Source of the DNA: a virus
Taxonomy: Duplodnaviria; Caudoviricetes
IMG/VR virus record: IMGVR_UViG_3300037467_001267
Coordinates: 1-64,000 of that record
Reading direction: 5' to 3' (one strand)
DNA: 64,000 nucleotides
Of the stretch, positions 1,960 through 62,605 are shown one piece after another. The position numbers and the translations under genes were made by a program. Position 1 is the stretch's first letter. Every line of letters starts with the position of its first letter. The notes under the pieces were generated by a model. The model worked only from the letters and a program-made list of their open reading frames with translations. It was not told where the DNA came from and searched no databases.

Positions 1960-2240
1960 AGAAAATCTACAAGTACATCCTTCCGCAAGACCAATGGGAT
2001 GAGGGCGTGTCCGTTACAATGCCCCGGGGTGCTCAGCTGCTCGACGCCCAGATCCAACCCCATAGCGGACTCTGTCTTTGGGCTCTGGTCGATCTGACCC
2101 AGCCTGATGATGTGCGAACGTTCCGGGTGTTTGGGACGGGGCAACCCCTCCCGACCTGGTTCACGGGGAGAGGCTACGTCGCGACGTTCCAAATGGAGAA
2201 GGGCTATTTGGTCTTCCATCTCTTTGAGGTGACTAAGTAA
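1956..2240 (+). CDS. Conserved small phage protein (IYKY..MP.GA..LWALVD..VFGTG..HLFE pattern)
   Basis: 94-aa ORF coupled to neighbours; pattern recognisable from other phage hypotheticals. Confidence 0.6.
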   Translation: MKKIYKYILPQDQWDEGVSVTMPRGAQLLDAQIQPHSGLCLWALVDLTQPDDVRTFRVFGTGQPLPTWFTGRGYVATFQMEKGYLVFHLFEVTK

Positions 2241-3196
2241 TGGCGCAGAACGCTTTCCAACACGGCTCCAGTTCGCTGGAAGACTTCTACGGCTGGATGA
2301 ACGAGAGACATGCTATCTTCCGGCGGCGGTTCGTCGAGAACAAGCCCAAGCCGTGGACGGAAGACAAGATCATGCTGGAGTACAAGTTCACGAACGTCTT
2401 CCGCGAACTCGACAAGGGCACCATCGCCCTCCGGAAGATGGAGAAGCAGACCGTCCAGGACTTCCTGGCCTGCGAAGACCCCGAGCGGGCGTTCCACCTC
2501 GCCAAGCAAATCGTCTTCAACACGTTCTGGTACCGCACGTTCAACTGGTACGAGCATGCGGAGAAGCTGGGCATGGTCTCGAACTACGAGGACATGCACG
2601 ACTACTTCATGGACCTACACCGGCGGGACAAAAGAATCTTCACCGGGGCCCATATGGTGCGGGGCGACAACGGCGAGATCAAGGTGTTCCCCTACCTGCG
2701 GCTGCTGAAGGAAGTCTGGGACACGCTCGACGGGCTGACGGCGAGCATCGTCAAGTTCGGCACGATGGAGAACGCCTACTGGAAGGTACGGGAGTACCAT
2801 CTGGTGGGCCCGTTCAACGCGTACGAGCTGGTCTGCGATTGGCGGTGGAACGTCCTGGAGGCGACCGACTCGCTGACGTGGGGGTCGATCGGGCCGGGAG
2901 CTGCCCGCGGACTCCAGCGACTCGGGCTCGACGTGAGCACGAAGAGCATGGTGGACCTGTGGCACGAGGCCCCCAACTACCTCGCCCCGCACGTCCTCTC
3001 CCACTTCCCGGCCAAGGTCTTCAAGAGCAAGGAATCCAATGCTACGAACCCTTATAGCGTTTATCCGCGGCAGGATTTCGAATGGCCTCCGTTTGAAATT
3101 CGTGAGATCGAGCACTCCCTGTGCGAGTTCGACAAGTACGAGCGATGCCGAGCAGGCGAGGGCCGACCAAGACAAAAGTTCGCCGGACACGGATAA
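2240..3196 (+). CDS. aGPT-Pplase1 / 5-hmdU DNA kinase (helical domain) family protein
   Basis: FYGWMNERHAIF..KPKPWTEDKIMLEYKFTNVFRELDKGT, FTGAHMV, GPFNAYELVCD, GPGAARGL, EIEHSLCEFDKYER are characteristic of this family. Confidence 0.82.
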   Translation: MAQNAFQHGSSSLEDFYGWMNERHAIFRRRFVENKPKPWTEDKIMLEYKFTNVFRELDKGTIALRKMEKQTVQDFLACEDPERAFHLAKQIVFNTFWYRTFNWYEHAEKLGMVSNYEDMHDYFMDLHRRDKRIFTGAHMVRGDNGEIKVFPYLRLLKEVWDTLDGLTASIVKFGTMENAYWKVREYHLVGPFNAYELVCDWRWNVLEATDSLTWGSIGPGAARGLQRLGLDVSTKSMVDLWHEAPNYLAPHVLSHFPAKVFKSKESNATNPYSVYPRQDFEWPPFEIREIEHSLCEFDKYERCRAGEGRPRQKFAGHG

Positions 3197-4978: not shown

Positions 4979-5977
4979 ATGCGTATCATCGTCTGGACAC
5001 GCGGGCGGCTCAACCTCCAGCGAACCCGCAAGAACTTCCATCTGGACTCGCCCGAGATTCTCTCTCGCTGGGACGTGACGTACGTACTCTGTAACTCGGA
5101 GGTTAGGGAGTACGAAGCGAAGTATCCCAACAGTAAGACGATTAACGTTCCCGACGAATGGAACGCCAGCGAGATTCGGCACTGGTTGACGTACAACTAC
5201 GTGGAGCCCGACCCATTCCACGTCCTGATGGACGACGACCTGTATTTCCTCCGCCGCGTTGCGCCGACGGATATTCGTCAGCGGTCGAGCCCGGGAGTCC
5301 AGGACGCCATGGACATGTTCGAGCGCATCGAGAAATACTTGAACGAGGGTTACGCCCATGGCGGCATCTCCATCCGAGCGGGAAACAACCGCATCCCCGG
5401 CGTCTACGCCGAGAACACCCGCGTCATGGACATCCACTTCTACGACGCCCGCACCTTCGTCGAGGAGCGGATCAACCTGGCGGAGACGCCTGTTATGGGA
5501 GATTTCCACGCTACACTATCTCTCCTGGAACTCGGCTACCCGAACGTGCTTGACGCGGAGTTCATGTCTGGGCAACAGGACCATACGCCCGGCGGATGCT
5601 CTCGGTACCGCACTGTTGAGATGTTGCGCGAGACAGCGGAGAAGATGGCTCGCATCCACGCCCCGTTCGTGAAGGTGCGGTACAAGACGGTGAAGAACTC
5701 GCTGGCCCCGCAGGCGACTCTGCCCGACGTGACGGTGTACTGGAAGAAGAGCTTCGGCACGAAAGCCCACTTGCGGAAGTACAACCCGGCGTGCTTGCTC
5801 TGTGGTAAGCTTGCGGAGGAGCATATCGACGCGGACATCGAGAACTACGATAAGGATGGCGTATGTATAAATACACGCCAAAAAGTCTATGACCAACGAA
5901 CAGATTCAGCGGCTCAAGTTTCTAGCGGACAAGGTGCGGGGGTTGGAAGCTCGGAGGGAGGAGCTGGCGAGGGCTAA
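4979..5977 (+). CDS. GT-A glycosyltransferase of the TET/JBP-associated (TAGT/GREB1-like) DNA-base glycosyltransferase type
   Basis: RHW..FHVLMDDDLYF (DxD), DFHATLSLLELGYPN, TPGGCSRYRT, VTVYWKK; preceded by TAGGAGATAG RBS. Confidence 0.75.
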   Translation: MRIIVWTRGRLNLQRTRKNFHLDSPEILSRWDVTYVLCNSEVREYEAKYPNSKTINVPDEWNASEIRHWLTYNYVEPDPFHVLMDDDLYFLRRVAPTDIRQRSSPGVQDAMDMFERIEKYLNEGYAHGGISIRAGNNRIPGVYAENTRVMDIHFYDARTFVEERINLAETPVMGDFHATLSLLELGYPNVLDAEFMSGQQDHTPGGCSRYRTVEMLRETAEKMARIHAPFVKVRYKTVKNSLAPQATLPDVTVYWKKSFGTKAHLRKYNPACLLCGKLAEEHIDADIENYDKDGVCINTRQKVYDQRTDSAAQVSSGQGAGVGSSEGGAGEG

Positions 5978-9075: not shown

Positions 9076-9327
9076 ATGCTACTAAGTGAGTGGGTTGCGA
9101 GAGCGGAAGGCGTGGTGGCTCGCCTGAAAGAGCTGCCGGGAGACATCGAGGTCATGAAGGTGCCGGGACGCATCGTCCTGGATTACGACGGCACGATCCT
9201 CGGGAAAATTAACTGCGGAGAAATGGAGCTGGTGATTTATGGCGATGAGACCGGTCAGGCTGGGGCTAGACGAGATGAATCTGTTCAACACCATCGCGGT
9301 GGAGACGGGGGCGAAGTGCAACCGTAA
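9076..9327 (+). CDS. Hypothetical protein
   Basis: ATG right after the tRNA-like element; overlaps next gene. Confidence 0.4.
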   Translation: MLLSEWVARAEGVVARLKELPGDIEVMKVPGRIVLDYDGTILGKINCGEMELVIYGDETGQAGARRDESVQHHRGGDGGEVQP

Positions 9328-10213
9328 GTGCGGGTTCTGCCCGGTGAGTCTGGGCGGGCGGGATGAAGATGAGTACATGGACCAGGGCACGTTCAACAAG
9401 ATCATAGCCGAACTGGTCTCGCTGAAGTACAAGGGGAGTTTCATCTTCCACCTCTACAACGAGCCCATGAAAGATAAGAGGCTCGTTGACCTGGTGCGTC
9501 AGGCCCGGGAGAACTTGCCCCGGGCGGGGTTGAGATTTAACACCAACGGCGACTACATCAAAGAGCCCTGGGACGTGGCGAAGTATTTTGACGCGGGCCT
9601 GAACCAGATGCTGATCAACGTCTACTCCAACGAGAAGCGGTACCAGCAGCTGGTGGAGATCGTGCGGCAGGTCAAGGTGGCCCACGAGGGTCTGCACTAC
9701 GACGCGGGAGACATGAAGCGTGCCGGGATGAGCGTAGAGGTGCTAAGAAAGTTCGGGTCGGAAGTGTACCAGCTGGGCGGCACCCAGAAGCTGCAGAACA
9801 GGAGCGGCCAGAACACGGATCCCAACCTGGCCGTGTTGGACGAGCCGCTGGAAAAGTACTGCGTGCGGCCGTTCAGGCATATTAACGTGAACTGGAAGGG
9901 CGACGTGGTCTTGTGTTGTAACGACTACTTCGGTCGTGTGACGATCGGGAACGTGCGTGAGCGGAGTTTGGTGGACTTGTGGAATGATCCGCTCCTGATG
10001 CTCTACCGCAAGAAGCTCCAGCGAGAGGATCGGAGAATGCCGCTGTGTGATAAGTGCGATTACGGCGGTGGGGTCATGCCGCACAGTACGCACCCCATTG
10101 CGTGGCCGGGTCGTGCGTGGGCGGAGGATTATCGTGACGTTGACGTCGAAAAGCTGCGGCACATAGCCAAAACGTGCGCGGAGTCGGCGTCCATGGGGCA
10201 GTTAGGGGAATAG
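9239..10213 (+). CDS. Second radical SAM enzyme with SPASM/Twitch-type domain
   Basis: CxxxCxxC (KCNRKCGFC), HLYNEP, FNTNG, YCVRPF..KGDVVLCCND..IGNV..SLVDLWN..CDKC. Confidence 0.9.
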   Translation: MAMRPVRLGLDEMNLFNTIAVETGAKCNRKCGFCPVSLGGRDEDEYMDQGTFNKIIAELVSLKYKGSFIFHLYNEPMKDKRLVDLVRQARENLPRAGLRFNTNGDYIKEPWDVAKYFDAGLNQMLINVYSNEKRYQQLVEIVRQVKVAHEGLHYDAGDMKRAGMSVEVLRKFGSEVYQLGGTQKLQNRSGQNTDPNLAVLDEPLEKYCVRPFRHINVNWKGDVVLCCNDYFGRVTIGNVRERSLVDLWNDPLLMLYRKKLQREDRRMPLCDKCDYGGGVMPHSTHPIAWPGRAWAEDYRDVDVEKLRHIAKTCAESASMGQLGE

Positions 10214-10407: not shown

Positions 10408-10638
10408 ATGACGTTACGGATCGGACGGGTTGATGACGCGTATCGACCGGCTGTCGTGGAAGACGCGATGAAACTGCATCCGAATCTGGACGTGGTGCTG
10501 GGCCCCGAGTGGGCACGCCCGCTATGCGTGGGTGTGGTGTTCGTGCCGAGGGGGGCGGAGAAGTTTCTGGAATGGATTAAGGAAGCCCACGTGCGTGAAA
10601 CGTTGGGCACAGGCAAGGTAGACGAGATACGCATATGA
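10408..10638 (+). CDS. Hypothetical protein
   Basis: ATG 10408 after GGGAG; stop overlaps next start. Confidence 0.5.
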   Translation: MTLRIGRVDDAYRPAVVEDAMKLHPNLDVVLGPEWARPLCVGVVFVPRGAEKFLEWIKEAHVRETLGTGKVDEIRI

Positions 10639-11294
10639 GCAAAGTATTCTACGTGGCGGCGTCGGCAGCGAGACAGGGCGAAGCGAAGGCGATCGCTGAA
10701 CACTTGCGGGCTCGCGGTGCGAAGGTTAAAGCCCGCTGGCTAGAACAGGGTGATGTGTCGTACGGACGGCCGGGTGTGGAGGACGAACTGGGTACGTGTG
10801 CCCAGATGGACATGCACGACGTGATAAACTCTGACGAGGTAGTCTGCCTGTCCGGAGACGTCTATACTAAGGGTGGGCGGCATAGCGAAGTCGGTGCCGC
10901 GATAGCACTAGGAAAGAACGTGTGGCTGTTTGGTCCGAGAGAGCAAGTCTTCCACTACCACCCGTTAGTTACACAGGTGGAACGGCTGGACCAGATCGTC
11001 GTGAAGGATGTGGCCGAGAACTTTCGGACACGTAAACCCATGCGGGACGGGTTTATTGAGCAGCAAATTTACGAGCTGCGGAACAAGATCAAGTCTGTGA
11101 TGCTGAAACACGGCCCTGGCAAGTTCGTGTCGAGCCATGAGGTGCTCGGTCAAGTTACGGAGGAATATCACGAACTGATCGACGTAATTCGCAGAGACAA
11201 AGATAAAATTGGCCCGATTGCGGACGAACTGTTCGACATCGCGTTGGTGGCCGTGTTGGGTGTGGTGTCGATGCGTATGGGAGGTAATGACTGA
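10635..11294 (+). CDS. Nucleoside 2-deoxyribosyltransferase/N-glycosidase-like domain fused to a MazG-like helical domain
   Basis: KVFYVA..DMHDVINSDEVVCL..GGRHSEVGAAIALGK (NDT family), then HEVLGQVTEEYHEL..DELFDIALVA (MazG EExxE..E..D). Confidence 0.7.
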   Translation: MSKVFYVAASAARQGEAKAIAEHLRARGAKVKARWLEQGDVSYGRPGVEDELGTCAQMDMHDVINSDEVVCLSGDVYTKGGRHSEVGAAIALGKNVWLFGPREQVFHYHPLVTQVERLDQIVVKDVAENFRTRKPMRDGFIEQQIYELRNKIKSVMLKHGPGKFVSSHEVLGQVTEEYHELIDVIRRDKDKIGPIADELFDIALVAVLGVVSMRMGGND

Positions 11295-53172: not shown

Positions 53173-54030
53173 ATGGCTAAGAATCGTATGGATAAGCCCA
53201 CGGGCATGATCAAGGTCGAGGGCGTGAGCGGGGGCTTCCTCGCCACGATCGCGGGCCAAGACACCTCGCTGGCGTCCATGCAGGCGCACGTGATCGTGCC
53301 GCGGCTGAAGGTCATCCAGTCGATGACCGACAAGGACTTGAAGGCGAAGGTGGGCGGGGAGGGTACGGTGTGCATCCGCCCCGGCGACGAGGTGGTCGCG
53401 GCCCTGGAGGAGCCCTTCCTGTTCCAGCCCCGTTTCTTCTACAGCGAATACGCCACCTGGGCGGATCGGAAGGACAACGAGTCCTCCCGCATCATCGGGC
53501 GGAGCTTCGACCCCCAGAGCGAGATCGCCAAGAAGGCGGCGGACGCCAAGCGGCGTAAAGAGATGTACCCCGACCAGGAGAAGAAGCCCGAGGACAAGCG
53601 GCTGTACTACAGCCACGTCCATCACTTCTGCTGGTTCGGCGTCATCTACGGCGAGCACCCGCTGGCCGGCAACGAAGTCGTGCTGTCGATGGAGCGGGGC
53701 GAGTTCGGCCAGGGCCGGCAGTTCATCACCGCGATCTCCATGCGGAAGTTCCAGCCCGAAGGTGCCGACAAGAAGGTGCCCGTGCCGCTCTGGGCGCAGG
53801 TCTGGCAGCTCACGTCCAACTCCCGCACCCGCAACGGCAACACCTGGTACGGGTTTGACTTCAAGGCCCCGGAGGGCCACCCCGGGATCATTCGGGACGA
53901 CGAGGTGGAGCACGCCCAGTCCGAATACGCCCGGCTGGCGCAGCTCCATGAGGAGCGTCGGCTCCAGGTCGATCACGCCGAGGGCGACGAGACGGACGCT
54001 GGCGAGGCGTCCACGACCAAGTTCGCCTGA
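53173..54030 (+). CDS. Putative single-stranded DNA-binding/annealing protein
   Basis: IVPRLKVIQSM, aromatic-rich OB-like core, GNTWYGFDF, acidic C-tail; position before primase. Confidence 0.6.
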   Translation: MAKNRMDKPTGMIKVEGVSGGFLATIAGQDTSLASMQAHVIVPRLKVIQSMTDKDLKAKVGGEGTVCIRPGDEVVAALEEPFLFQPRFFYSEYATWADRKDNESSRIIGRSFDPQSEIAKKAADAKRRKEMYPDQEKKPEDKRLYYSHVHHFCWFGVIYGEHPLAGNEVVLSMERGEFGQGRQFITAISMRKFQPEGADKKVPVPLWAQVWQLTSNSRTRNGNTWYGFDFKAPEGHPGIIRDDEVEHAQSEYARLAQLHEERRLQVDHAEGDETDAGEASTTKFA

Positions 54031-54058
54031 TAGAAGCTAGTAACATCGTAGTGTCCCT

Positions 54059-54093
54059 GTCGTGACGGCGGCAAACCGTCACGGCGGTTTGTT
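54059..54093 (+). terminator. Terminator-like hairpin after SSB gene
   Basis: GTCGTGACGG/CCGTCACGGC stem followed by GGTTTGTT. Confidence 0.45.
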
Positions 54094-54140
54094 ACGCCAA
54101 CACGGGCAACGTTGGCGGCTAACTATCTAGGAGTTGTGGC

Positions 54141-57038
54141 GTGACCAAAGGTAAGACGAGTCTGCCGATCGAACGGATTAACGCTCTGGCGGAGCTGGAG
54201 CGTTGGGATTGGAAGTATGAGCCGCTCGGCAACAACGAAGTCAAGATCTGCTGTCCCGTCCATGAGGACAAGTCCCCGTCGGTCAACCTCGACGTGGAGC
54301 AGAACCTTTGGAAGTGCCACGTATGCCCGGCCCGGGGCGACATCGTCTCGCTGATCGCGGCCATCGCCACCCGAACGTCGGGCAAGCAGATCGACCGCTC
54401 CACGGTCATCAACGATCTGGGGTCTCGGTACGACCTGGAATCGATCAAGGTGCTCTCCCAGGACGTGGTCGAGAAGCATCACCAGGCCGTCTGGGAGGCG
54501 GGGCCGCTCCTCCAGGCCCTGTACGACCGCGGCGTAACCGACGCCGACATCCGCGAGGCACGGCTGGGGTACTGGGAGGGCCGCATCTCCATCCCCGTCT
54601 ACGACGAGCATTGGAACGTCGTGAACATCCGGCGGTATCTCCCCGGGGCTCCCGGCCCCGAGAAGATGCGGAACATGAAGGGGTACGGGCGACCCGCCCG
54701 GATGTACCAGATCGCCGATCTGAAGTACGAGAAGGTCTGGCTATGCGGCGGGGAGTTGAAGGCCCGCGTCGTCAAGCGACTCCTCAACCCGCATGGGGTC
54801 GGGGCCGTGGCCCTGACGGAGGGCGAGGGTAACTGGGAGCATAAATACTCCCAGAAGTTCAAGGACAAAGTCGTCTACATCTGCTACGACATTGACGCTG
54901 TGGGCTTCCATAACAGCCGCAAGGTCGCGGGGTACATCGCCCGGTTCGCCAAGGCGGTCTTGCTTATCCGGCTGCCGCTCGACCCCGGGAAGTACCCCAA
55001 GGGCGACGTCAACGACTACGTGGGCCAGGAGCACGCGACGGACGCCGACCTGCTCCGCCTGATGGCGGAGGCGACGGAGTTCATCCCCGACGACCCGACT
55101 ACTCCGGAGGACACGTCGAGCGTCCGCAAGGTCAAGCTCGTGGACGCGACCCGTCCGGAGAACGTCGGCCATCGGCTGGAGATGGACGGCACGGTGAACG
55201 CGATGGAGGAGACCCCGTACCTCATCCCGCGAACGATCGGCTGCGCTTGCGACCGCAACCAGCCCGAGTGTACGCGGTGCCCGGTGCTCCCGCAAGACCC
55301 GCACCCCGACACCGGCAAGGTCGTGCTGAAGATCCGCGGCACGTCGATGGGGATGCTGAACATGGTCGGCTCGCCCGAGAAGCTCCAGCGGGAGAGCATC
55401 CGCGAGTCGCTGGGAATCCCGACATGTAAGAGCGTGACGTTCACCGTCCAGGACCACTTCAACGTCTGGGACGTTCGGCTCTCACCGCAGCTGACGATCA
55501 GCGGGAGCAACGCCGACAACGTCAACATGCCGGCCCTGGTCGTGTCCGAAGAGATCGACCTGAACGTGCCGTACGTCCTCCAGGGCAGGATCTACCCGCA
55601 CCCCAAGAACCAGCAGGCCGTCCTGGTCATCGACGAAGTCAAGCAGGCGGAGGACTCGCTGAATTCCTTCACGCCGACGGCCAGCGAGCTGGAGACGCTC
55701 AAAGTCTTCCAGCCCGCCGAGTGGACGACCAAGGGGATCAAAGAGAAGCTGGACGACTTCTATGCGGACATCGAGTTCAACGTCACGCGCATCTACCACC
55801 GGCGGAATCTACACGTCCTCATGGATCTCGTCTACCACTCCGCCCTGTACTTCTACTTTGACGGGCGGCTCCAGAACGGGTGGGTTAACGCTCTCGTGGC
55901 GGGAGACACTTCGCAAGGCAAGAGCGAGGCGACGACGCGCATTATGGGGCACTACGGTCTCGGTGAGCGAGTCGAGTGTAAGAACGCGACTGTCCCGGGC
56001 CTGCTCGGGGGTTTCGAGAACCTTGGTAACAAGATGTTCGTTAAGTGGGGTGCCGTCCCGACCCATGACCGCCGGTTTGTCGTGCTCGAAGAGGTCAACG
56101 GAGCCGCCGTCGAGGTCATCGGCAAGCTCACCGACATGCGAAGCTCCGGCATCGCGGAGCTACAGAAGGTCGGCGGTGTGCGACGGGCTCATGCTCGTAC
56201 AAGACAGCTATGGACGGGCAACTCCCGATCGAACCGCCGGGTAAGCCAGTTTAATTTCGGGGTGGAGCTGCTACAGGAGCTCATCGGCTCCGCCCAGGAC
56301 GTGCGGCGGTTCGACGTGGCGATGGTCGTGTCTAAGTCGGACGTAGACCCGAAAGAGATCAACAAAGCCCAGGAGGAGCGGCCCCGTGTGGAACATAAGT
56401 ACACTCCTGAGTTGTGTCGCCGCCGCGTGCTTTGGGCTTGGACTCGCAGCCCAGCTCAGGTTGTCTTCGACAAAGAGGCGGAGAGGGCGTGCCTGGCGGG
56501 AGCGGCAGACATGTGTGCGAAATACTCTGAGGAAATCCCCCTGGTGGACAAGGGTACGATGCGGTTTAAGATTGCTCGCCTGGCTGTTGCGTGCGCGGCC
56601 TGTACGTTCTCGACGGGCGACACGACGGAGAGCGTGAGGGTGCGGGAGTGCCACGTCGAGTTCGTGTCGAAATGGCTCGACAGAATCTACTCCGGTTCGA
56701 CCCTAGGCTACCACGACTTCTCTCGGGCCGTACAGTTCGCCCAACAGCTCAAAGATCCGGAGATCGTGGAGTCCCACATCCGTACGCAGAAGTTCCCGCG
56801 GGACTTCGTGGACAACCTCCTCCACTCGAAAGAGATCACCCTCAACGACATTATGGACTGGTGCGAGGTCGACAAGGACGCCGCCCAGAAGGTCTTGTCG
56901 GTTCTGGTGCGTAAGAATGCGATTTACCGCGATGGTCGCTTCTACGCCAAGACGCCGACATTCATCTCCCTACTCAAACACCTCCAGGCCAAGGGCGACC
57001 TGCCGGAGAACAACATCGCCAAGGACAAGTTCGCATGA
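54141..57038 (+). CDS. Primase-helicase: CHC2 zinc finger + TOPRIM + MCM-like AAA+ helicase
   Basis: CPVHED..WKCHVC; YDID and KGDVNDY; CAC..CTRC; NALVAGDTSQGKS, VVLEEVN, ARTRQLWTGN, VRRFD. Confidence 0.85.
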   Translation: MTKGKTSLPIERINALAELERWDWKYEPLGNNEVKICCPVHEDKSPSVNLDVEQNLWKCHVCPARGDIVSLIAAIATRTSGKQIDRSTVINDLGSRYDLESIKVLSQDVVEKHHQAVWEAGPLLQALYDRGVTDADIREARLGYWEGRISIPVYDEHWNVVNIRRYLPGAPGPEKMRNMKGYGRPARMYQIADLKYEKVWLCGGELKARVVKRLLNPHGVGAVALTEGEGNWEHKYSQKFKDKVVYICYDIDAVGFHNSRKVAGYIARFAKAVLLIRLPLDPGKYPKGDVNDYVGQEHATDADLLRLMAEATEFIPDDPTTPEDTSSVRKVKLVDATRPENVGHRLEMDGTVNAMEETPYLIPRTIGCACDRNQPECTRCPVLPQDPHPDTGKVVLKIRGTSMGMLNMVGSPEKLQRESIRESLGIPTCKSVTFTVQDHFNVWDVRLSPQLTISGSNADNVNMPALVVSEEIDLNVPYVLQGRIYPHPKNQQAVLVIDEVKQAEDSLNSFTPTASELETLKVFQPAEWTTKGIKEKLDDFYADIEFNVTRIYHRRNLHVLMDLVYHSALYFYFDGRLQNGWVNALVAGDTSQGKSEATTRIMGHYGLGERVECKNATVPGLLGGFENLGNKMFVKWGAVPTHDRRFVVLEEVNGAAVEVIGKLTDMRSSGIAELQKVGGVRRAHARTRQLWTGNSRSNRRVSQFNFGVELLQELIGSAQDVRRFDVAMVVSKSDVDPKEINKAQEERPRVEHKYTPELCRRRVLWAWTRSPAQVVFDKEAERACLAGAADMCAKYSEEIPLVDKGTMRFKIARLAVACAACTFSTGDTTESVRVRECHVEFVSKWLDRIYSGSTLGYHDFSRAVQFAQQLKDPEIVESHIRTQKFPRDFVDNLLHSKEITLNDIMDWCEVDKDAAQKVLSVLVRKNAIYRDGRFYAKTPTFISLLKHLQAKGDLPENNIAKDKFA

Positions 57039-57670
57039 TACACGATCTGGGATTGATGGTGCGGGCGTTCCATGAGAAATATGGATTCCCGCTGGACCGC
57101 AAGCTCTCCGACGAGCGTACGCAGAGCGACATGGCGCAAGGAACCTTCCAGACCTCGCAGGCTCTACGCGAGTTCGGTAAGCTCCTCGTGGAGCAGGCGG
57201 AAGCCTGGCGGGTGCCGGCCACCGCGATGCAGCATGACGGAGACGGGCGGCTGTACTCGATTATGATGATGGCGGAAGAGTTCGGAGAGTACGCCATCGC
57301 CATGGCGGAAAAGAACGAACTCAAGGCTGCGCACGAGCTGGCGGACTTAGCCTACACGGTCTACGGTCGTGGCGAGCAGTACAACGTACCGCTTACTGCC
57401 GTGTTCGTGGAGCTCCATAAGTCAAACATGACGAAAGAGAAGGTGGGTGAGCGGATGCGGACTCGCGACCAGCCGAACACGTACCTGCCGCCGGACATCC
57501 GTGCCGCGGTCGTGGCGGGGCGGATCGCCCGGCGGCGTAATGGTATGACCGTCGCGGGATACACCGACGTCCAGCCCCGCGAGAAGGACACGCTGCGGTT
57601 GGAGTGTACGTGTGGTGCATTGAAAGACCCTGGTCATGCCCCGAACTGCCCGCGTAATGGGCTCGATTAA
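57035..57670 (+). CDS. MazG/PRA-PH-like nucleoside triphosphate pyrophosphohydrolase
   Basis: VRAFHEKYG, MAEEFGE, HELADLAYTVYG, ELHKSNMTK. Confidence 0.82.
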   Translation: MIHDLGLMVRAFHEKYGFPLDRKLSDERTQSDMAQGTFQTSQALREFGKLLVEQAEAWRVPATAMQHDGDGRLYSIMMMAEEFGEYAIAMAEKNELKAAHELADLAYTVYGRGEQYNVPLTAVFVELHKSNMTKEKVGERMRTRDQPNTYLPPDIRAAVVAGRIARRRNGMTVAGYTDVQPREKDTLRLECTCGALKDPGHAPNCPRNGLD

Positions 57671-57681
57671 TAGGAGATAGC

Positions 57682-58677
57682 ATGAACACCTTCGACACGT
57701 TAGACGAACTCTGGCTCGACGCCGCCCACAAGCTCTTGGGCGAGGGCGAGGGCATCGCCAGCCGCGACGGCGGGGTGGCCCGCGAAGTCCTGGGCTACTC
57801 AGCGAGGCTCGCTGATCCGCGTGCGTGCTTTCTGTTCAACCCCGTACGGGCCATCAGCCCCAGCTACGCCGCGGCGGAGCTGCTCTGGTACCTGTCGGGC
57901 ACGAGCAATACGACCGGCCTCCAGGAGTACGCCCCGCAGTACAAGCGGTTCACGGAGGACGGCGTCCACGCGTACGGTGCCTACGGGCATCGGATCTGGG
58001 CCACCCACGAAGTGCTCGCGACCGGCATCGACTTTCAGGGCGACCATTTGCGGCCGCTCTTCACCGACCCCTGGCGACCGGCCGGCCAGCTGGAGATGTT
58101 GATGGCCCTCCTGTCGAAGCTCCCCGAGACCCGGCAGGCGGTCGTCTCGCTGTGGAGGCCGCACGACATCACTTGCGCCCTCCAGCAGAACAAGAAGGAT
58201 CTGCCCTGTACGCTCTCCCTGCAGTTCCTACTCCGCAACGGGAAGCTCAACCTGATCGTCACGATGCGGAGCAACGACATCTGGCTGGGCCTGCCGTATG
58301 ACGCCTGGTCGTGGTGCTCGATCCAGCAGCTCGTCGCCACGGCCCTGGGCGTGGAACTCGGCTGGTACCAGCACCAGGCCGGGTCGATGCACGTCTACGA
58401 GCGGAACTACGAGAAGTTCCAGCAGGCGGCGTGGGTGGACAACTTCTCGACGGGGTCGATCGAGTACACCCCATTCTACCGCTGGAACAGCGAGATCCGC
58501 ACCGCGTTGAACGTCGAGCAGGTCATCCGTGAGCGGAAGTCCCTATGTATGCTGGACCGTCCGTTCAAACAGACCCTGCTCGGCCAGACGTGTGTGATGG
58601 CGGCAACGAAATGGGACAAGCTGGCTTGGGAGCATATCGAGAACAAGACCCTTTCGAGGTACTGCGAATGTTTATAA
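57682..58677 (+). CDS. Thymidylate-synthase homologue, predicted dCMP (hydroxy)methylase type
   Basis: AELLWYLSG, GAYG.R, TRQAVVSLW, DLPCT (catalytic Cys), MRSNDIWLGLPYD (Asp at the specificity position), AGSMHVYE. Confidence 0.88.
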   Translation: MNTFDTLDELWLDAAHKLLGEGEGIASRDGGVAREVLGYSARLADPRACFLFNPVRAISPSYAAAELLWYLSGTSNTTGLQEYAPQYKRFTEDGVHAYGAYGHRIWATHEVLATGIDFQGDHLRPLFTDPWRPAGQLEMLMALLSKLPETRQAVVSLWRPHDITCALQQNKKDLPCTLSLQFLLRNGKLNLIVTMRSNDIWLGLPYDAWSWCSIQQLVATALGVELGWYQHQAGSMHVYERNYEKFQQAAWVDNFSTGSIEYTPFYRWNSEIRTALNVEQVIRERKSLCMLDRPFKQTLLGQTCVMAATKWDKLAWEHIENKTLSRYCECL

Positions 58678-59204
58678 TCGAAGGTGCCGACCATCTCGGC
58701 AAGACGCACGCGGCGAAGCGTATGGTGGAGCTGGCCGAACCCCGGTATCCCGTGCGGTACCAGCATATGTCGAGGCAGAACGCCGCGTTCAACTACGGCA
58801 GCGACTACCTCGACCTGCTGTCGAAGTACGCCGTCCAGGATCGCTTCCATCTGGGTGCCCTCGTCTACCACGAGCCCGGCACGCTCACGACGGACAACCT
58901 GTTGACCGTCAAGCGGTGGCTCAAGGATGTGGGCTCGATGGTCGTGATCTTCTACGCCAGCGACGAGCGGGCTTACGAGAAGTCGCTGCGGGAGGAAGGC
59001 AAGGCTGAGATGTTCTCGGTCGAGAAGATCCTGGAGGCCAACGAGAAGTTCCGCAAGCTTACCTATGAGGGAGTCTGCGACTTCTCCTACGACGTGACTA
59101 TGTCGGGCTGGGTGTCGGACGGGCAGCTCAAGACGTGGCTCGGCTGGTGGTACTCGCGGATGGACGGATGTGCGAACACGCGGCGGAACTACATGGCGAG
59201 GTAA
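58668..59204 (+). CDS. Deoxynucleotide monophosphate kinase (P-loop)
   Basis: FIIEGADHLGKT, VQDRFHLGALVY. Confidence 0.8.
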   Translation: MFIIEGADHLGKTHAAKRMVELAEPRYPVRYQHMSRQNAAFNYGSDYLDLLSKYAVQDRFHLGALVYHEPGTLTTDNLLTVKRWLKDVGSMVVIFYASDERAYEKSLREEGKAEMFSVEKILEANEKFRKLTYEGVCDFSYDVTMSGWVSDGQLKTWLGWWYSRMDGCANTRRNYMAR

Positions 59205-59205
59205 C

Positions 59206-59700
59206 ATGCACTTCGGAACAGCACAAGCTATGGAACGGCGATTCCGCGACCTGATGGGTAACCTCCATCGCTGGGCGGAGTCGATGGCGTGCGGTTGTAA
59301 GCGGAAGCAAGTCGGGTTCGCCCTCGTGGCGATCGGCCCCGACGGACATTTCCGCGAGATCTGCCGGGCCCATAACGGCCCGTCGGCTGCGGGGCACGAG
59401 TGCTCCAACGTCGTGGGCGGCTGCGGATGCGGACACAGCGAGCCCCGCCTCATGATGGCGGCGATGCGTGCGGGGTACACCGCCCCGCAATGGATCGACA
59501 AGCTCGTCGTCGTCGGCACGTACTCGCCCTGCTCGTTCTGTGCGAACGCGATCGTGGACGCGAAGATCGCACACGTCTGCGTGTACGACATCCTGACCGA
59601 GCACGACACGCGGGGCGTTGAGATTCTCAATCGGGGATTGCCTAAGGGTGCGGTCAGCATCGCTGACCTGAAGTATGAGGAGATCGAGTCATGGGCGTAG
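59206..59700 (+). CDS. dCMP deaminase-like zinc deaminase
   Basis: CKRKQVG, HNGP, GHSE (HxE), SPCSFC (PCxxC). Confidence 0.85.
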   Translation: MHFGTAQAMERRFRDLMGNLHRWAESMACGCKRKQVGFALVAIGPDGHFREICRAHNGPSAAGHECSNVVGGCGCGHSEPRLMMAAMRAGYTAPQWIDKLVVVGTYSPCSFCANAIVDAKIAHVCVYDILTEHDTRGVEILNRGLPKGAVSIADLKYEEIESWA

Positions 59701-60110
59701 AGAGACCGCAAGTCAACCTGGAGATGGACCGCGTCGTGTGCGGGATCCACGGCGAGCCGTTCCGTGCGAAGTGGCCGGAAGGATACCCGACCTTCGCCGT
59801 CGAAGTCTTCCACGCCGTCGCTCAGACGGGCGTGTTCTCGGATGTGGGTGAGTTCAAAATCAACCGCATGCTGAAGACCAAGCCGCTCTGCTGCCGGCTG
59901 AAGGAAATCGACCCGGCCAAGCTCGTGGAGCTGTACGCCCGAACGCCGATGGCGGTGACGGCGGTGTGCTCGCGGTGCGCCCTCCTCAAGCCGGGTGCCC
60001 CGTACAAGTACAACGACCCGCGATCGAACTACGGGCACCTCACCCTGACGCACCTGTGCTTCGAGTGCGTCGTGTACCGGCTGGTCGCGGCCCCGGGGCG
60101 GAGTAACTGA
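59691..60110 (+). CDS. Cys-rich hypothetical protein
   Basis: CGIH, LCC, CSRC, HLCFEC. Confidence 0.55.
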   Translation: MGVERPQVNLEMDRVVCGIHGEPFRAKWPEGYPTFAVEVFHAVAQTGVFSDVGEFKINRMLKTKPLCCRLKEIDPAKLVELYARTPMAVTAVCSRCALLKPGAPYKYNDPRSNYGHLTLTHLCFECVVYRLVAAPGRSN

Positions 60111-60373
60111 TGTGGATCACCAAGTCGCCCCTCGACTGTCCGTACTGCGGCCACGTCCATGCCGGGCTCAAGCAGGCGTCGTCGGCGTCCGGCTCGCTGG
60201 TCGAGGGTGCGACGGTGATCTGTCCGAGCTGTGCAGGCATCGTCCGATGGGACGGGCAGAAGCTCGCCCTACTCACCAAAGAGCAGAAGGCGGCGATGGA
60301 CTTCCATCCCCAGCGAGCGGAGATGGAAGCGTACGTCGCGGCGATCGTGAAGAAGAGAGGTTTGTACGGATGA
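60110..60373 (+). CDS. Zn-ribbon protein
   Basis: CPYC..CPSC. Confidence 0.6.
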   Translation: MWITKSPLDCPYCGHVHAGLKQASSASGSLVEGATVICPSCAGIVRWDGQKLALLTKEQKAAMDFHPQRAEMEAYVAAIVKKRGLYG

Positions 60374-62427
60374 TTAAGCTACCCAACGGGGCGATGCTGC
60401 TCGAGCACGCCCACGAACTGCCCGACTGGAGGGACTGCCGTGACCTGTTCCTGGACATCGAGTCCAAGCGCATCTACAAGGCCCACATCATCGAGGACGA
60501 CGACGGGGAGGAGACGGACCACAGCGGTCTCTACCCGTTTGGCGGCGATCGTATCGCGGGCATTGCGGCAGTACCAGACGACCACCCCACGCCCGTCTAC
60601 ATCGCCGTCCGCCACACGCCGATGTTCTCCCCGAACATCCCCGAGGAGAATGTGCGGCGGTGGCTCGACGACCACGTAGGCATGCGGGCTAAGCCCAAGC
60701 GGTGGAGCAACCATAACATCCTCATCGACGTTGCGTTCGTGGAGCACGAGGGCGTCACGGTCAACGTGGACCTGGACGACACGCTCACCCGGGCCAAGAT
60801 GTACGACTCGGACAGGATAGGGCACGGCCTGAAGTCCGTCGTGCCTGCCTGGGGTGGGCCACCGATGAGTGAAGAGCATCGCATCAAGGCTTACTTAAAG
60901 TCGATCAAGTCCAAGTCGTACGCGGACGTGCCCTGCGACCTCATGGGTCACTACGCGACGGACGACGTTCTGGGCAACCGCTGGCTCACCCGGTTTCTCG
61001 ACGCTAAGATGCCCGACATGCGGAACATCCCCCGCAACGAGCAACTCCTCACCCCCGTCCTGTACGACATGGAGCGGGAAGGTCTGCTGATCAACCGCAA
61101 GGAATGTAAGCGGGCTCTCGCCGAAGGCTACCGCGACCTGTTGTTGCTGGGCACCGAGATCGGCATGATCGCCGGGCGGGAGTTCACCAACTCCGCCGCG
61201 TGCCTGTACGACATCCTGACGAACCGCTTCGGCCTGCCCGTCCTAGTCACCAAATGGGAGAAGGACGAAGAGACCAAGAAGTACGTCGACACCGGGCGGG
61301 CCACGTACTCGAAAGACGCCCTCGGCATCTACGCACGCCATCCGCTGGTCCTGGCGGACGAGAACCTGGTCGAGCTGGTGGACCTGATCCTGAAGTACCG
61401 CAAGGTACAGCAGATGGTGAGTTTGTTTTACGAGCCGTTCCTGAAGCTCGCTGACGAACGGGAGTACATCCATCCGACGTACAACCAGCTGGTCCGGACG
61501 GGCCGCATGAGTTGTAAGCGACCCAACGCCCAACAGCAGACCAAGAAGTCCAAGCGGCTGATCAAGCCAGGCCCGGGGAGATGCTTTATCTCCTGCGACT
61601 ATTCGCAGATCGAGTTTAGACTTATAGTCCACTACATCGAGGACGTGAACGCCATTAGAGCTTATCAGGAAGATCCCTGGACGGACTTCCACCAGTGGGT
61701 CGCCGACATGATCGGCATCGGCCGCAAGCCAGCGAAGACGCTCAACTTCGGCATGGGCTACGGGGCGGGCCAAAAGAAGGTCACCAGCGAGCTGTCGAAG
61801 AACGAAGACATCATCGCTGACGTCGGTGAAGAGATCAACGCGATGGTGTTGGAAGGTAAGCTCGACCCGTCGAAGCGCAGCGAAATGTTTAACATCTTGT
61901 GCGAGGAGCGGGCGAGGGCGGCGTACAACACGTACCACGAGACCCTGCCCGGCATCAAGAAGACTTCTCGCGAGGCCGGAGCCTTCGCCAAGAGCCACGG
62001 CTACGTGCGGAACCTGCTGGGCCGCATCCGGCATCTCCCGCCCGAGCGGGCCCATATCGCCTTCAACACCGTCGTCCAGGGCTCCGCGATGGACTTCATC
62101 AAAGAGGCTATGATTAGGTTGGCCCCCCGCTACAACAAGCGGATGCGCGACTGGGACATCAAGATCGTAGCCAACGTCCATGACGAGGTGCTCTTCAACG
62201 CCCCGGTCGAGCTGATGCTGAACGAAGAGGTTCACAGCTACATCCTGGAGAACCTGGAGATGACGAGCGTGCCCCTCCTGGTGCCGTTGAAGTCGGGGCT
62301 CGGCGTGAGCGATCGCGATTGGGCGGAGGCCAGCGGCGACGAAGCCCGCTGGGCGGACGGCACGGTGTGCAAACCAAAGGACTACCGTGGAGACGACAGA
62401 CCTATCGCCGGGCGACTCGTTGGCTAA
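60370..62427 (+). CDS. Family A DNA polymerase with 3'-5' exonuclease
   Basis: ExoI LDIES, ExoII NHN..D, ExoIII YATDD; RTGRMSC..PNAQ; motif A DYSQIE, B KTLNFGMGYG, C VHDE. Confidence 0.95.
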   Translation: MIKLPNGAMLLEHAHELPDWRDCRDLFLDIESKRIYKAHIIEDDDGEETDHSGLYPFGGDRIAGIAAVPDDHPTPVYIAVRHTPMFSPNIPEENVRRWLDDHVGMRAKPKRWSNHNILIDVAFVEHEGVTVNVDLDDTLTRAKMYDSDRIGHGLKSVVPAWGGPPMSEEHRIKAYLKSIKSKSYADVPCDLMGHYATDDVLGNRWLTRFLDAKMPDMRNIPRNEQLLTPVLYDMEREGLLINRKECKRALAEGYRDLLLLGTEIGMIAGREFTNSAACLYDILTNRFGLPVLVTKWEKDEETKKYVDTGRATYSKDALGIYARHPLVLADENLVELVDLILKYRKVQQMVSLFYEPFLKLADEREYIHPTYNQLVRTGRMSCKRPNAQQQTKKSKRLIKPGPGRCFISCDYSQIEFRLIVHYIEDVNAIRAYQEDPWTDFHQWVADMIGIGRKPAKTLNFGMGYGAGQKKVTSELSKNEDIIADVGEEINAMVLEGKLDPSKRSEMFNILCEERARAAYNTYHETLPGIKKTSREAGAFAKSHGYVRNLLGRIRHLPPERAHIAFNTVVQGSAMDFIKEAMIRLAPRYNKRMRDWDIKIVANVHDEVLFNAPVELMLNEEVHSYILENLEMTSVPLLVPLKSGLGVSDRDWAEASGDEARWADGTVCKPKDYRGDDRPIAGRLVG

Positions 62428-62605
62428 GTTCGAAGGCATAATCAAAATCGAGGTAGACCTGGCCCAAGTTTCCGGCCAGAAGCAGTTAGAGCGTATTCGA
62501 CAGCTCGTGCTCTCCCTCCAGGAGAAGTACCCATACGGCTGGTCCGCGACTCGCTGGAGGGAGCGGGCCATTTACTCAAGGAACGACGCATATGGCAACG
62601 ATTGA
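62387..62605 (+). CDS. Hypothetical protein
   Basis: 72-aa ORF overlapping polymerase end. Confidence 0.4.
   Translation: METTDLSPGDSLAKFEGIIKIEVDLAQVSGQKQLERIRQLVLSLQEKYPYGWSATRWRERAIYSRNDAYGND

Follow-up and report, generated by a model that had tools for sequence, protein, structure and literature searches.

The 64,000-nucleotide stretch of viral DNA analysed here (the window; positions 1 to 64,000 of IMG/VR record IMGVR_UViG_3300037467_001267) encodes a thymidylate synthase (TS) homologue bearing the residue that selects cytosine, together with a member of the 5-HMUDK family of DNA kinases (hereafter HMUDK), a family associated with 5-hydroxymethyluracil (hmU). An initial annotation made from the letters of the window had drawn attention to this apparent conflict, and had proposed that the hypermodification lies on cytosine and that the kinase homologue acts on 5-hydroxymethylcytosine (hmC) in DNA. 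The window forms part of a 72,095-bp virus record that was judged complete and that occurs in soil and rhizosphere metagenomes; a megablast search with positions 54000-62500 against cultured phages returned no close relative. The 72-kb genome holds a single TS homologue and no recognisable dUMP hydroxymethylase, and neither ThyX, TET/JBP nor ADDT (aGPT-Pplase 2) was found in it. The features under discussion are collected in Table 1.

Table 1. Features of the window considered in this work.
Feature	Position	Strand	Basis
HMUDK-family protein (aGPT-Pplase clade 1)	2240..3196	+	PF18723, E 4e-42, whole protein
His106 codon of HMUDK (His in window clade, Thr elsewhere)	2555..2557	+	alignment of conserved positions
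TAGT-family (GT-A, DDD motif) DNA glycosyltransferase homologue	4979..5977	+	PF20691, E 3e-8
MazG/PRA-PH-type nucleoside triphosphate pyrophosphohydrolase	57035..57670	+	PF01503, E 7e-12; adjoins synthase in relatives too
TS-family pyrimidine hydroxymethylase, predicted dCMP hydroxymethylase (5hmdCMP synthase), 331 aa	57682..58677	+	PF00303, MilA likeness, residue signature
Codons of D173-L-P-C176-T177 (Asp at L143, catalytic Cys, Thr at H147)	58198..58212	+	MAFFT alignment
Asp207 codon GAC (position of E. coli ThyA Asn177, pyrimidine selector)	58300..58302	+	alignments
P-loop nucleotide-kinase-like protein (IEGADHLGKT)	58665..59204	+	profile match to SPbeta YorR, E 6e-5, and to thymidylate kinase P-loops
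CDA-fold nucleotide deaminase, HSE and PCxxC zinc motifs intact	59206..59700	+	PF00383, E 7e-6
Family A DNA polymerase, last of cassette	60376..62427	+	predicted start; longest ORF from 60112

The synthase and its selector residue

The open reading frame (ORF) of the synthase is uninterrupted and is preceded by GGAG 8 nt upstream of its ATG. Profile search placed the product in the TS superfamily (PF00303, Thymidylat_synt; E 5e-26, 91.8 bits against a cut-off of 24.3). In a MAFFT alignment with E. coli ThyA the catalytic set Cys146, Glu58, Tyr94, Arg166, Asp169, His207 and Tyr209 is complete in the form of C176, E66, Y101, R196, D199, H237 and Y239, while R28, R151 and S197 correspond to R21, R126 and S167. 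The enzyme is not of the ThyA type, however, having D173, T177 and D207 instead of L143, His147 and Asn177.

The motif MRSNDIWLGLPYD is found in the synthase translation. In HMMER alignments to solved structures, residues R196 to D207 run without a gap against 'RSADVFLGVPFN' of E. faecalis TS and 'RANDAFRGAVSD' of MilA, with Asp207 facing Asn in the former and Asp in the latter. Asp occupies the 177 position in all 120 of the closest database homologues, and positions 58240-58677 are identical, with no letter differing, in contigs from three soil or rhizosphere runs; Asp207 is therefore neither an error nor a chance variant. The alignments confirm that, as the initial annotation had claimed, the Asp stands at the equivalent of Asn177, including when the position is checked against solved structures.

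An AlphaFold model of the synthase generated from 40 homologues reached a mean predicted local distance difference test (pLDDT) score of 94.6. Foldseek assigned a probability of 1.00 to the match of this model with MilA and with TS structures alike. MilA, the CMP 5-hydroxymethylase of mildiomycin biosynthesis (PDB 5jnh, 5b6d), was the best full-length structural match (TM-score 0.78-0.81, compared with 0.55-0.62 for thymidylate synthases) and also the best match by sequence (E 1e-26). A quick tree of the synthases placed T4 gp42 and ThyA on long branches.

Predicted substrate and product of the synthase

Position 177 (ThyA numbering) sets the pyrimidine preference of these enzymes, Asn selecting uracil and Asp cytosine (PMC13326640). 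Mutagenesis of this residue in E. coli TS, L. casei TS and T4 gp42 switches base preference (cited in PMC8670742, PMC13326640), and positions 147 and 177 were singled out when metagenomic contigs containing modified cytosine were compared with contigs lacking it (PMC8670742). The T4 motif and the Asn/Asp rule invoked by the initial annotation are consistent with these reports and with PMC5175136. At positions 143/146/147/166/169/177 the window synthase reads D-C-T-R-D-D, the same six diagnostic residues as T4-like gp42, whereas ThyA reads L-C-H-R-D-N; D173 and T177 correspond to T4 D145 and T149, so that an acidic residue at 143 is combined with a residue other than His at 147. The Asp and Thr also set the enzyme apart from the dUMP hydroxymethylases of the SPO1 gp29, M6 and ViI type, which have Asn177 and, in every kinase-linked member typed, Asn147. 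Because two independent specificity positions (Asp at 177 and Thr at 147) match T4 gp42 and MilA, assignment as a dCMP hydroxymethylase is favoured, and with all of the sequence tests in agreement we consider it highly probable that the enzyme makes 5-hydroxymethyl-dCMP (5hm-dCMP).

Asp177 by itself cannot separate hydroxymethyl, methyl and hydroxy products, and the initial annotation had accordingly named all three; several metagenomic Asp177 synthases made 5-methyl-dC (5mdC) when tested (bioRxiv 10.1101/2024.12.05.627091). Other residues are more discriminating. At position 143 a bulky hydrophobic residue correlates with a methyl product and Asp or Glu with a hydroxymethyl product (PMC13326640). 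Asp is present here in 117 of the 120 homologues, and Asp173 in the window synthase favours a hydroxymethyl rather than a methyl product. A methyl product is further disfavoured by the partners of the enzyme, since a hydroxymethyl-directed kinase family and a TAGT-type transferase require a hydroxyl. Replacement of Asp169 by Asn is the mark of flavin-dependent 5-hydroxy-dCMP synthases, all tested examples of which have Asn (PMC13326640). The equivalent Asp199 is retained (120/120 homologues), placing the enzyme outside the RB69 gp48 and DLP3 gp80 type and arguing against a 5-hydroxy product. Finally, Ser167 with Arg126' is found in deoxyribose-preferring enzymes, and Ala with Lys in MilA and BcmA (PMC5175136); the Ser197 and Arg151 of the window synthase are of the first kind and favour dCMP rather than CMP as the substrate. 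The earlier product claim is thus well supported and is narrowed to 5hm-dCMP by D173, D199, Ser197 and Arg151, and either 5-methyl-dCMP (Xp12 type) or 5-hydroxy-dCMP (RB69 type) would be an improbable product.

Were the synthase to hydroxymethylate dUMP despite its Asp and Thr, the conflict with HMUDK would dissolve into an ordinary thymine hypermodification pathway, and a deaminase able to make dUMP is encoded in the same genome. Against this stand the mutagenesis of residue 177 described above, the retention of Asn177 and Asn147 by every kinase-linked dUMP hydroxymethylase typed, and the fact that the Asp-type set needs a P-loop kinase of its own (see below). We consider dUMP use by this enzyme to be very unlikely.

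Recurrent pairing of Asp-type synthases with HMUDK

Synthases were typed in the cultured HMUDK phages M6, Ab18, CN2, RHph_I65, SBSphiC, ECML-4 (ViI-like) and phiW-14, and seven of seven read D-C-N-R-D-N (Asn-type), as did those of all 48 viral contigs in which a synthase lies less than 3 kb from HMUDK. Among 50 viral contigs with Asp-type synthases, HMUDK was present in 18, each of which has one synthase. The pairing occurs in at least five lineages: the window clade; another synthase clade, with kinases that group with the window kinase; a clade with a kinase sister to the ViI type; one genome with an Asn-type-like backbone and Asp177; and the cultured Microbacterium cluster EA phages. The conflict between an Asp-type synthase and an hmU-kinase homologue, as raised by the initial annotation, is therefore real, all kinase-linked dUMP hydroxymethylases typed being of the Asn type, and it is recurrent.

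Eight contigs share the order synthase-kinase-glycosyltransferase (in one, the glycosyltransferase follows about 3 kb on), and overlapping genes are common. The same three genes are found in Asn-type contigs with the synthase type swapped. A survey of HMUDK contigs labels the neighbouring synthases dUMP hydroxymethylases, and the section consulted reports no check of residue 177 (PMC8989533). Our literature search found no description of a conserved pairing of Asp-type synthase and HMUDK.

Some synthases in this collection are of unusual type. One (L208; G058:C1:35519-36461) has the mixed signature Asn147 and Asp177 ('GYSGID') on an Asn-type hydroxymethylase backbone; a deaminase gene lies directly upstream of it and HMUDK elsewhere in the genome. 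The reverse mixture, Thr147 and Asn177, belongs to a deaminase-free genome that carries HMUDK (L209; G074:C1:43993-44601). The Asn-type hydroxymethylases of Brevibacterium phage LuckyBarnes (L223) and Glutamicibacter phage Montesquieu (L224) are about 515 aa long as annotated, with some 200 extra residues. They adjoin HMUDK and are accompanied by two glycosyltransferases (LuckyBarnes) or by aGPT-Pplase 2 (Montesquieu), in genomes that have no deaminase.

The gene cassette around the synthase

The order MazG-synthase-kinase-deaminase-PolA is kept in relatives, and in the window two small ORFs separate the deaminase from the family A polymerase. A probable task of the MazG/PRA-PH protein is the removal of a canonical dNTP. 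The P-loop kinase gene starts within the synthase gene, its ATG standing among the final synthase codons, 13 nt before the synthase end (58665-58677; ATGTTTATAATCG), and this overlap suggests translational coupling of the two genes. A longer kinase ORF from 58545, proposed by the ORF finder, was unsupported by homologue alignment. The P-loop kinase was found in nine of nine Asp-type HMUDK genomes and in none of 21 genomes of the other set. Such tracking of the Asp type is expected if the synthase product is 5hm-dCMP, which would need a phage kinase as the product of the T4 enzyme does.

Profile searches matched the deaminase to cyanophage, S. mutans and T4 dCMP deaminases, and its HSE and PCxxC motifs are invariant across 13 homologues. 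A tblastn search against phages found no cultured-phage relative, the window deaminase being too divergent. Single-sequence searches of the PDB with the deaminase and with the kinase homologue likewise returned no match, and profile searches were required. The combination of an Asp177 synthase with deaminase, PRA-PH and PolA has been described as the mark of metagenomic phages with fully replaced cytosine (bioRxiv 10.1101/2024.12.05.627091). Judged by the predicted functions of its members, the group of MazG, P-loop kinase, deaminase and PolA around the synthase is a T4-like modified-cytosine cassette.

Further genes of the window were noted. The protein encoded at 10635-11294 weakly resembles nucleoside 2-deoxyribosyltransferase (PF05014, E 4e-4), a family that includes MilB and the DNPH1-type nucleotide N-glycosidases, and may remove some nucleotide from the pool; its homologues lie downstream of ribonucleotide reductase in four of 12 related kinase loci. 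Radical SAM/SPASM genes are located at 949-1959 and 9239-10213. None of the 12 closest kinase loci has homologues of these, and 9/68 other Asp-type loci do, so that any tie to the kinase is loose.

The kinase and glycosyltransferase partners

The HMUDK of the window is 31-33% identical to the M6- and Ab18-type kinases and belongs to the family by its residues R23, F50, N52, R55, D58, R99, N102, D200, C295, E296 and K299, which are common to 61 Asn-linked members. A single-sequence locus search with this protein returned nothing, and an alignment query was required. Approximately 45 core positions are conserved in both the Asp-linked and the Asn-linked kinases, and only one of them, position 106 (His in the window clade, Thr elsewhere), differs between the groups.

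Candidate specificity residues were considered. A switch of Thr to His at position 106 was rejected, as the other Asp-linked lineages keep Thr, and because it is not shared by them His106 is retained as a lead only. Lys49 and Gly60 occur more often in Asp-linked kinases, to an extent that multiple testing could account for. His177 versus Asp in the glycosyltransferase was tried as a group marker, but the two residues do not separate the groups cleanly and their distribution follows phylogeny.

A TAGT-family gene is present in 10 of the 12 Asp-type kinase loci and in 32 of the 65 Asn-type kinase loci. TAGT genes were seen travelling with HMUDK at loci L154-L203 (e.g. L163:3843-4616) and L025-L048. 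A module of kinase plus glycosyltransferase acting on hydroxymethyl pyrimidines was not found in the thymidine hypermodification literature consulted.

Cultured Microbacterium phages

The complete genomes of the Microbacterium phages Mercedes, Neferthena, Koji and Casey each encode an Asp-type synthase and HMUDK. The synthase motif in these phages is 'GYRAD', comparable to 'GFRND' of T4. Neither a PF00383 deaminase nor TET/JBP was found in any of the four complete genomes. In Mercedes (MT498063.1, 29597-36560; L217:1598-8561) a single leftward block contains HMUDK, the Asp-type synthase, two TAGT genes, the P-loop kinase and MazG, and the HMUDK scores 107 bits against PF18723. The full block was seen in Mercedes, whereas synthase type and the absence of deaminase and TET/JBP were checked in all four genomes, which represent a group of 42 Microbacterium phage records matching this kinase. 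Of the right-arm genes of cluster EA, a published survey mentions only thymidylate synthase and a MazG-like protein (PMC7302621), and we found no DNA-modification data on these phages.

A proposed hmC-directed kinase and its alternatives

From the observed signature, fold, gene order and co-occurrence we infer the following series of enzymatic steps. The synthase would convert dCMP and methylene-tetrahydrofolate to 5hm-dCMP, as T4 gp42 does, while the MazG enzyme would strip a canonical triphosphate from the pool. The overlapping P-loop kinase would phosphorylate the modified monophosphate, and hmC would be put into DNA by the phage polymerase. After replication, the HMUDK-family kinase and the TAGT-type glycosyltransferase would decorate the hydroxymethyl group, the substrate of the kinase being hmC and not hmU. 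We put the probability of this whole chain, including an hmC-directed kinase, at about 50%.

Comparative genomics strengthens this hmC-kinase route, which we consider plausible, in three respects. It is favoured because the deaminase-free Microbacterium genomes pair an Asp-type synthase with HMUDK, because the synthase-kinase-transferase module is found with synthases of either type and is otherwise unchanged, and because the P-loop kinase tracks the Asp-type synthase. The proposal of the initial annotation, that the hypermodification is on cytosine and the kinase an hmC-DNA kinase, thus gained support from the recurrent operon pairing and from the deaminase-free phages; its last step, to the kinase itself, remains a proposal, and the deaminase, of a kind able to turn 5hmdCTP into 5hmdUTP (bioRxiv 10.1101/2024.12.05.627091), could supply the kinase with hmU.

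Several observations weigh against the hmC-kinase route. The only 5-HMUDK assayed on both bases, a commercial enzyme, phosphorylates hmU and not hmC (PMC6457204). No kinase residue changes consistently across the Asp-linked lineages, His106 being limited to the window clade. The window genome has a deaminase, as do all 11 near-complete Asp-type metagenomic genomes with HMUDK, and in one lineage the HMUDK gene is directly beside the deaminase gene. The kinase of the deaminase-free Microbacterium phages is only 22% identical to that of the window, and no nucleoside analysis of any of these phages was found in the literature searched.

An alternative is a cytosine-first route to hmU, in which the synthase makes 5hm-dCMP, the deaminase turns phosphorylated hm-dC nucleotides into hm-dU and the kinase keeps its hmU substrate, whether or not cytosine is replaced as well. 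The preferred substrates of phage deaminases encoded beside Asp177 synthases are 5mdCTP and 5hmdCTP, and co-expression of seven such deaminases with T4 gp42 and gp1 yielded 5hmdU in DNA (bioRxiv 10.1101/2024.12.05.627091). The specificity of the tested kinase, the adjacency of kinase and deaminase genes in one lineage and the L208 genome, in which Asp177 sits on an Asn-type-like backbone with the deaminase directly beside the synthase, are all in keeping with such a route. So is the presence of the deaminase in 11/11 near-complete Asp-type HMUDK metagenomic genomes compared with one weak, below-cut-off match among 14 near-complete Asn-type genomes.

This co-occurrence (Fisher p 2e-5, counted before one comparison-set genome was retyped as Asp-type) was initially taken as strong support and was subsequently downgraded. 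Deaminases are about as frequent in Asp-type phages that have no kinase (8/12 complete genomes) and are carried also by cultured Asn-type kinase phages, so the presence of a deaminase is not kinase-specific. Four lineages with the gene and one without it approximate the background rate of the Asp type, and on this evidence the deaminase resembles a general accessory of the cytosine cassette more than a link to the kinase. Furthermore, many relatives have synthase and kinase joined in one operon and keep the deaminase among the polymerase genes. As the complete Microbacterium genomes pair Asp-type synthase and kinase with neither deaminase nor TET/JBP, the deaminase route cannot be general. We regard it as a tentative alternative, possible but rather on the unlikely side.

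A separate alternative is that the kinase does not act on a hydroxymethyl pyrimidine, for example by phosphorylating a sugar added by the glycosyltransferase, or that it takes hmC and hmU without discrimination. Kinase and TAGT-type transferase travel together in Asn-type and Asp-type phages alike, no ADDT-type transferase, for which a phosphomethyl intermediate would be the substrate, is encoded, and no consistent specificity residue separates the two kinase groups. However, conservation of the kinase core across both groups, with its one difference, suggests the same chemistry, and we found no precedent for another kinase role in the literature searched. This explanation appears unlikely. 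A two-base model, with the transferase acting on hmC and the kinase on hmU, was also weakened, since Asn-type phages, in which hmU is the sole product, have a transferase of this same family alongside the kinase.

Returning to the hmC-directed kinase, the literature searched contained neither an hmC DNA kinase nor a phosphomethylcytosine intermediate, in line with the remark of the initial annotation that hmC is not known to be described as a substrate for the 5-HMUDK family. The chances are even, in our estimation, that the HMUDK-family enzymes paired with Asp-type synthases act as DNA kinases on 5-hydroxymethylcytosine and, with a TAGT-type transferase, bring about cytosine hypermodification via 5-phosphomethylcytosine.

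Comparison with known systems

The helper set of the window resembles that of T4, in which gp56 dCTPase, gp1 dNMP kinase, cd deaminase and DNA glucosyltransferases provide the same functions: pyrophosphohydrolase, nucleotide kinase, deaminase and DNA glycosyltransferase. Despite the shared signature, the window synthase is approximately 25% identical or less to T4 gp42, which lies on a long branch in the tree, and it differs from gp42 in being extended at the C terminus by about 80 residues, in the manner of MilA. The window genome has no second thymidylate synthase, and it encodes an HMUDK-family kinase, which is missing from the T-even phages.

The likeness to MilA extends to single residues, both enzymes having Asp at positions 143 and 177 and a Thr following the catalytic Cys. 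At the ribose/deoxyribose-setting residues, however, the Ser197 and Arg151 of the window synthase are replaced in MilA by Ala and Lys, and MilA is a bacterial antibiotic-pathway enzyme whereas the window synthase is an enzyme of a phage replication module.

With the phages that combine a dUMP hydroxymethylase and 5-HMUDK (M6, PaMx11/Ab18, ViI, phiW-14 and SP10) the window shares the PF18723 kinase family and the linkage of synthase and kinase, and some metagenomic members of the thymidine-hypermodification group also carry a TAGT-type transferase. Their synthases have Asn147 and Asn177, whereas the window synthase has cytosine-type residues at both positions. The window genome also differs from these pathways in having neither ADDT (aGPT-Pplase 2) nor a pyridoxal phosphate (PLP) enzyme, and the gene order is synthase-kinase-transferase here but kinase-(transferase)-synthase in the thymidine-hypermodification phages. 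To our knowledge, all described 5-HMUDK pathways begin with hmU and modify thymine. Asp-type synthases, for their part, are known to feed cytosine glycosylation, carbamoylation or methylation.

A matching neighbourhood is that of the cassettes of metaviromes and Xp12 that combine an Asp177 synthase with a deaminase of modified dC nucleotides, where the same PRA-PH, synthase, PF00383 deaminase and PolA genes are found (bioRxiv 10.1101/2024.12.05.627091). The characterised examples make 5mdCMP, and the deaminase leads on to dTTP, whereas the signature in the window predicts a hydroxymethyl product and a DNA kinase homologue is added. The component families of the window system are known; their combination, and the substrate that it implies, are undescribed in the literature searched.

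Significance

If HMUDK-family enzymes of this group act as proposed, the resulting cytosine hypermodification would be a counterpart of the thymidine pathways, operating in soil phages as well as in the cultured Microbacterium phages of cluster EA; we give this the same even odds. Since cultured Microbacterium phages carry the same gene set, either outcome, hmC-directed kinase or deaminase-fed kinase, is directly testable. Should the deaminase feed the kinase, phages would possess a second, cytosine-first route to hmU for hypermodification. Should the kinase act on hmC, phosphate-activated group transfer would reach cytosine, opening the way to new DNA modifications and providing a new enzyme with which to mark 5hmC.

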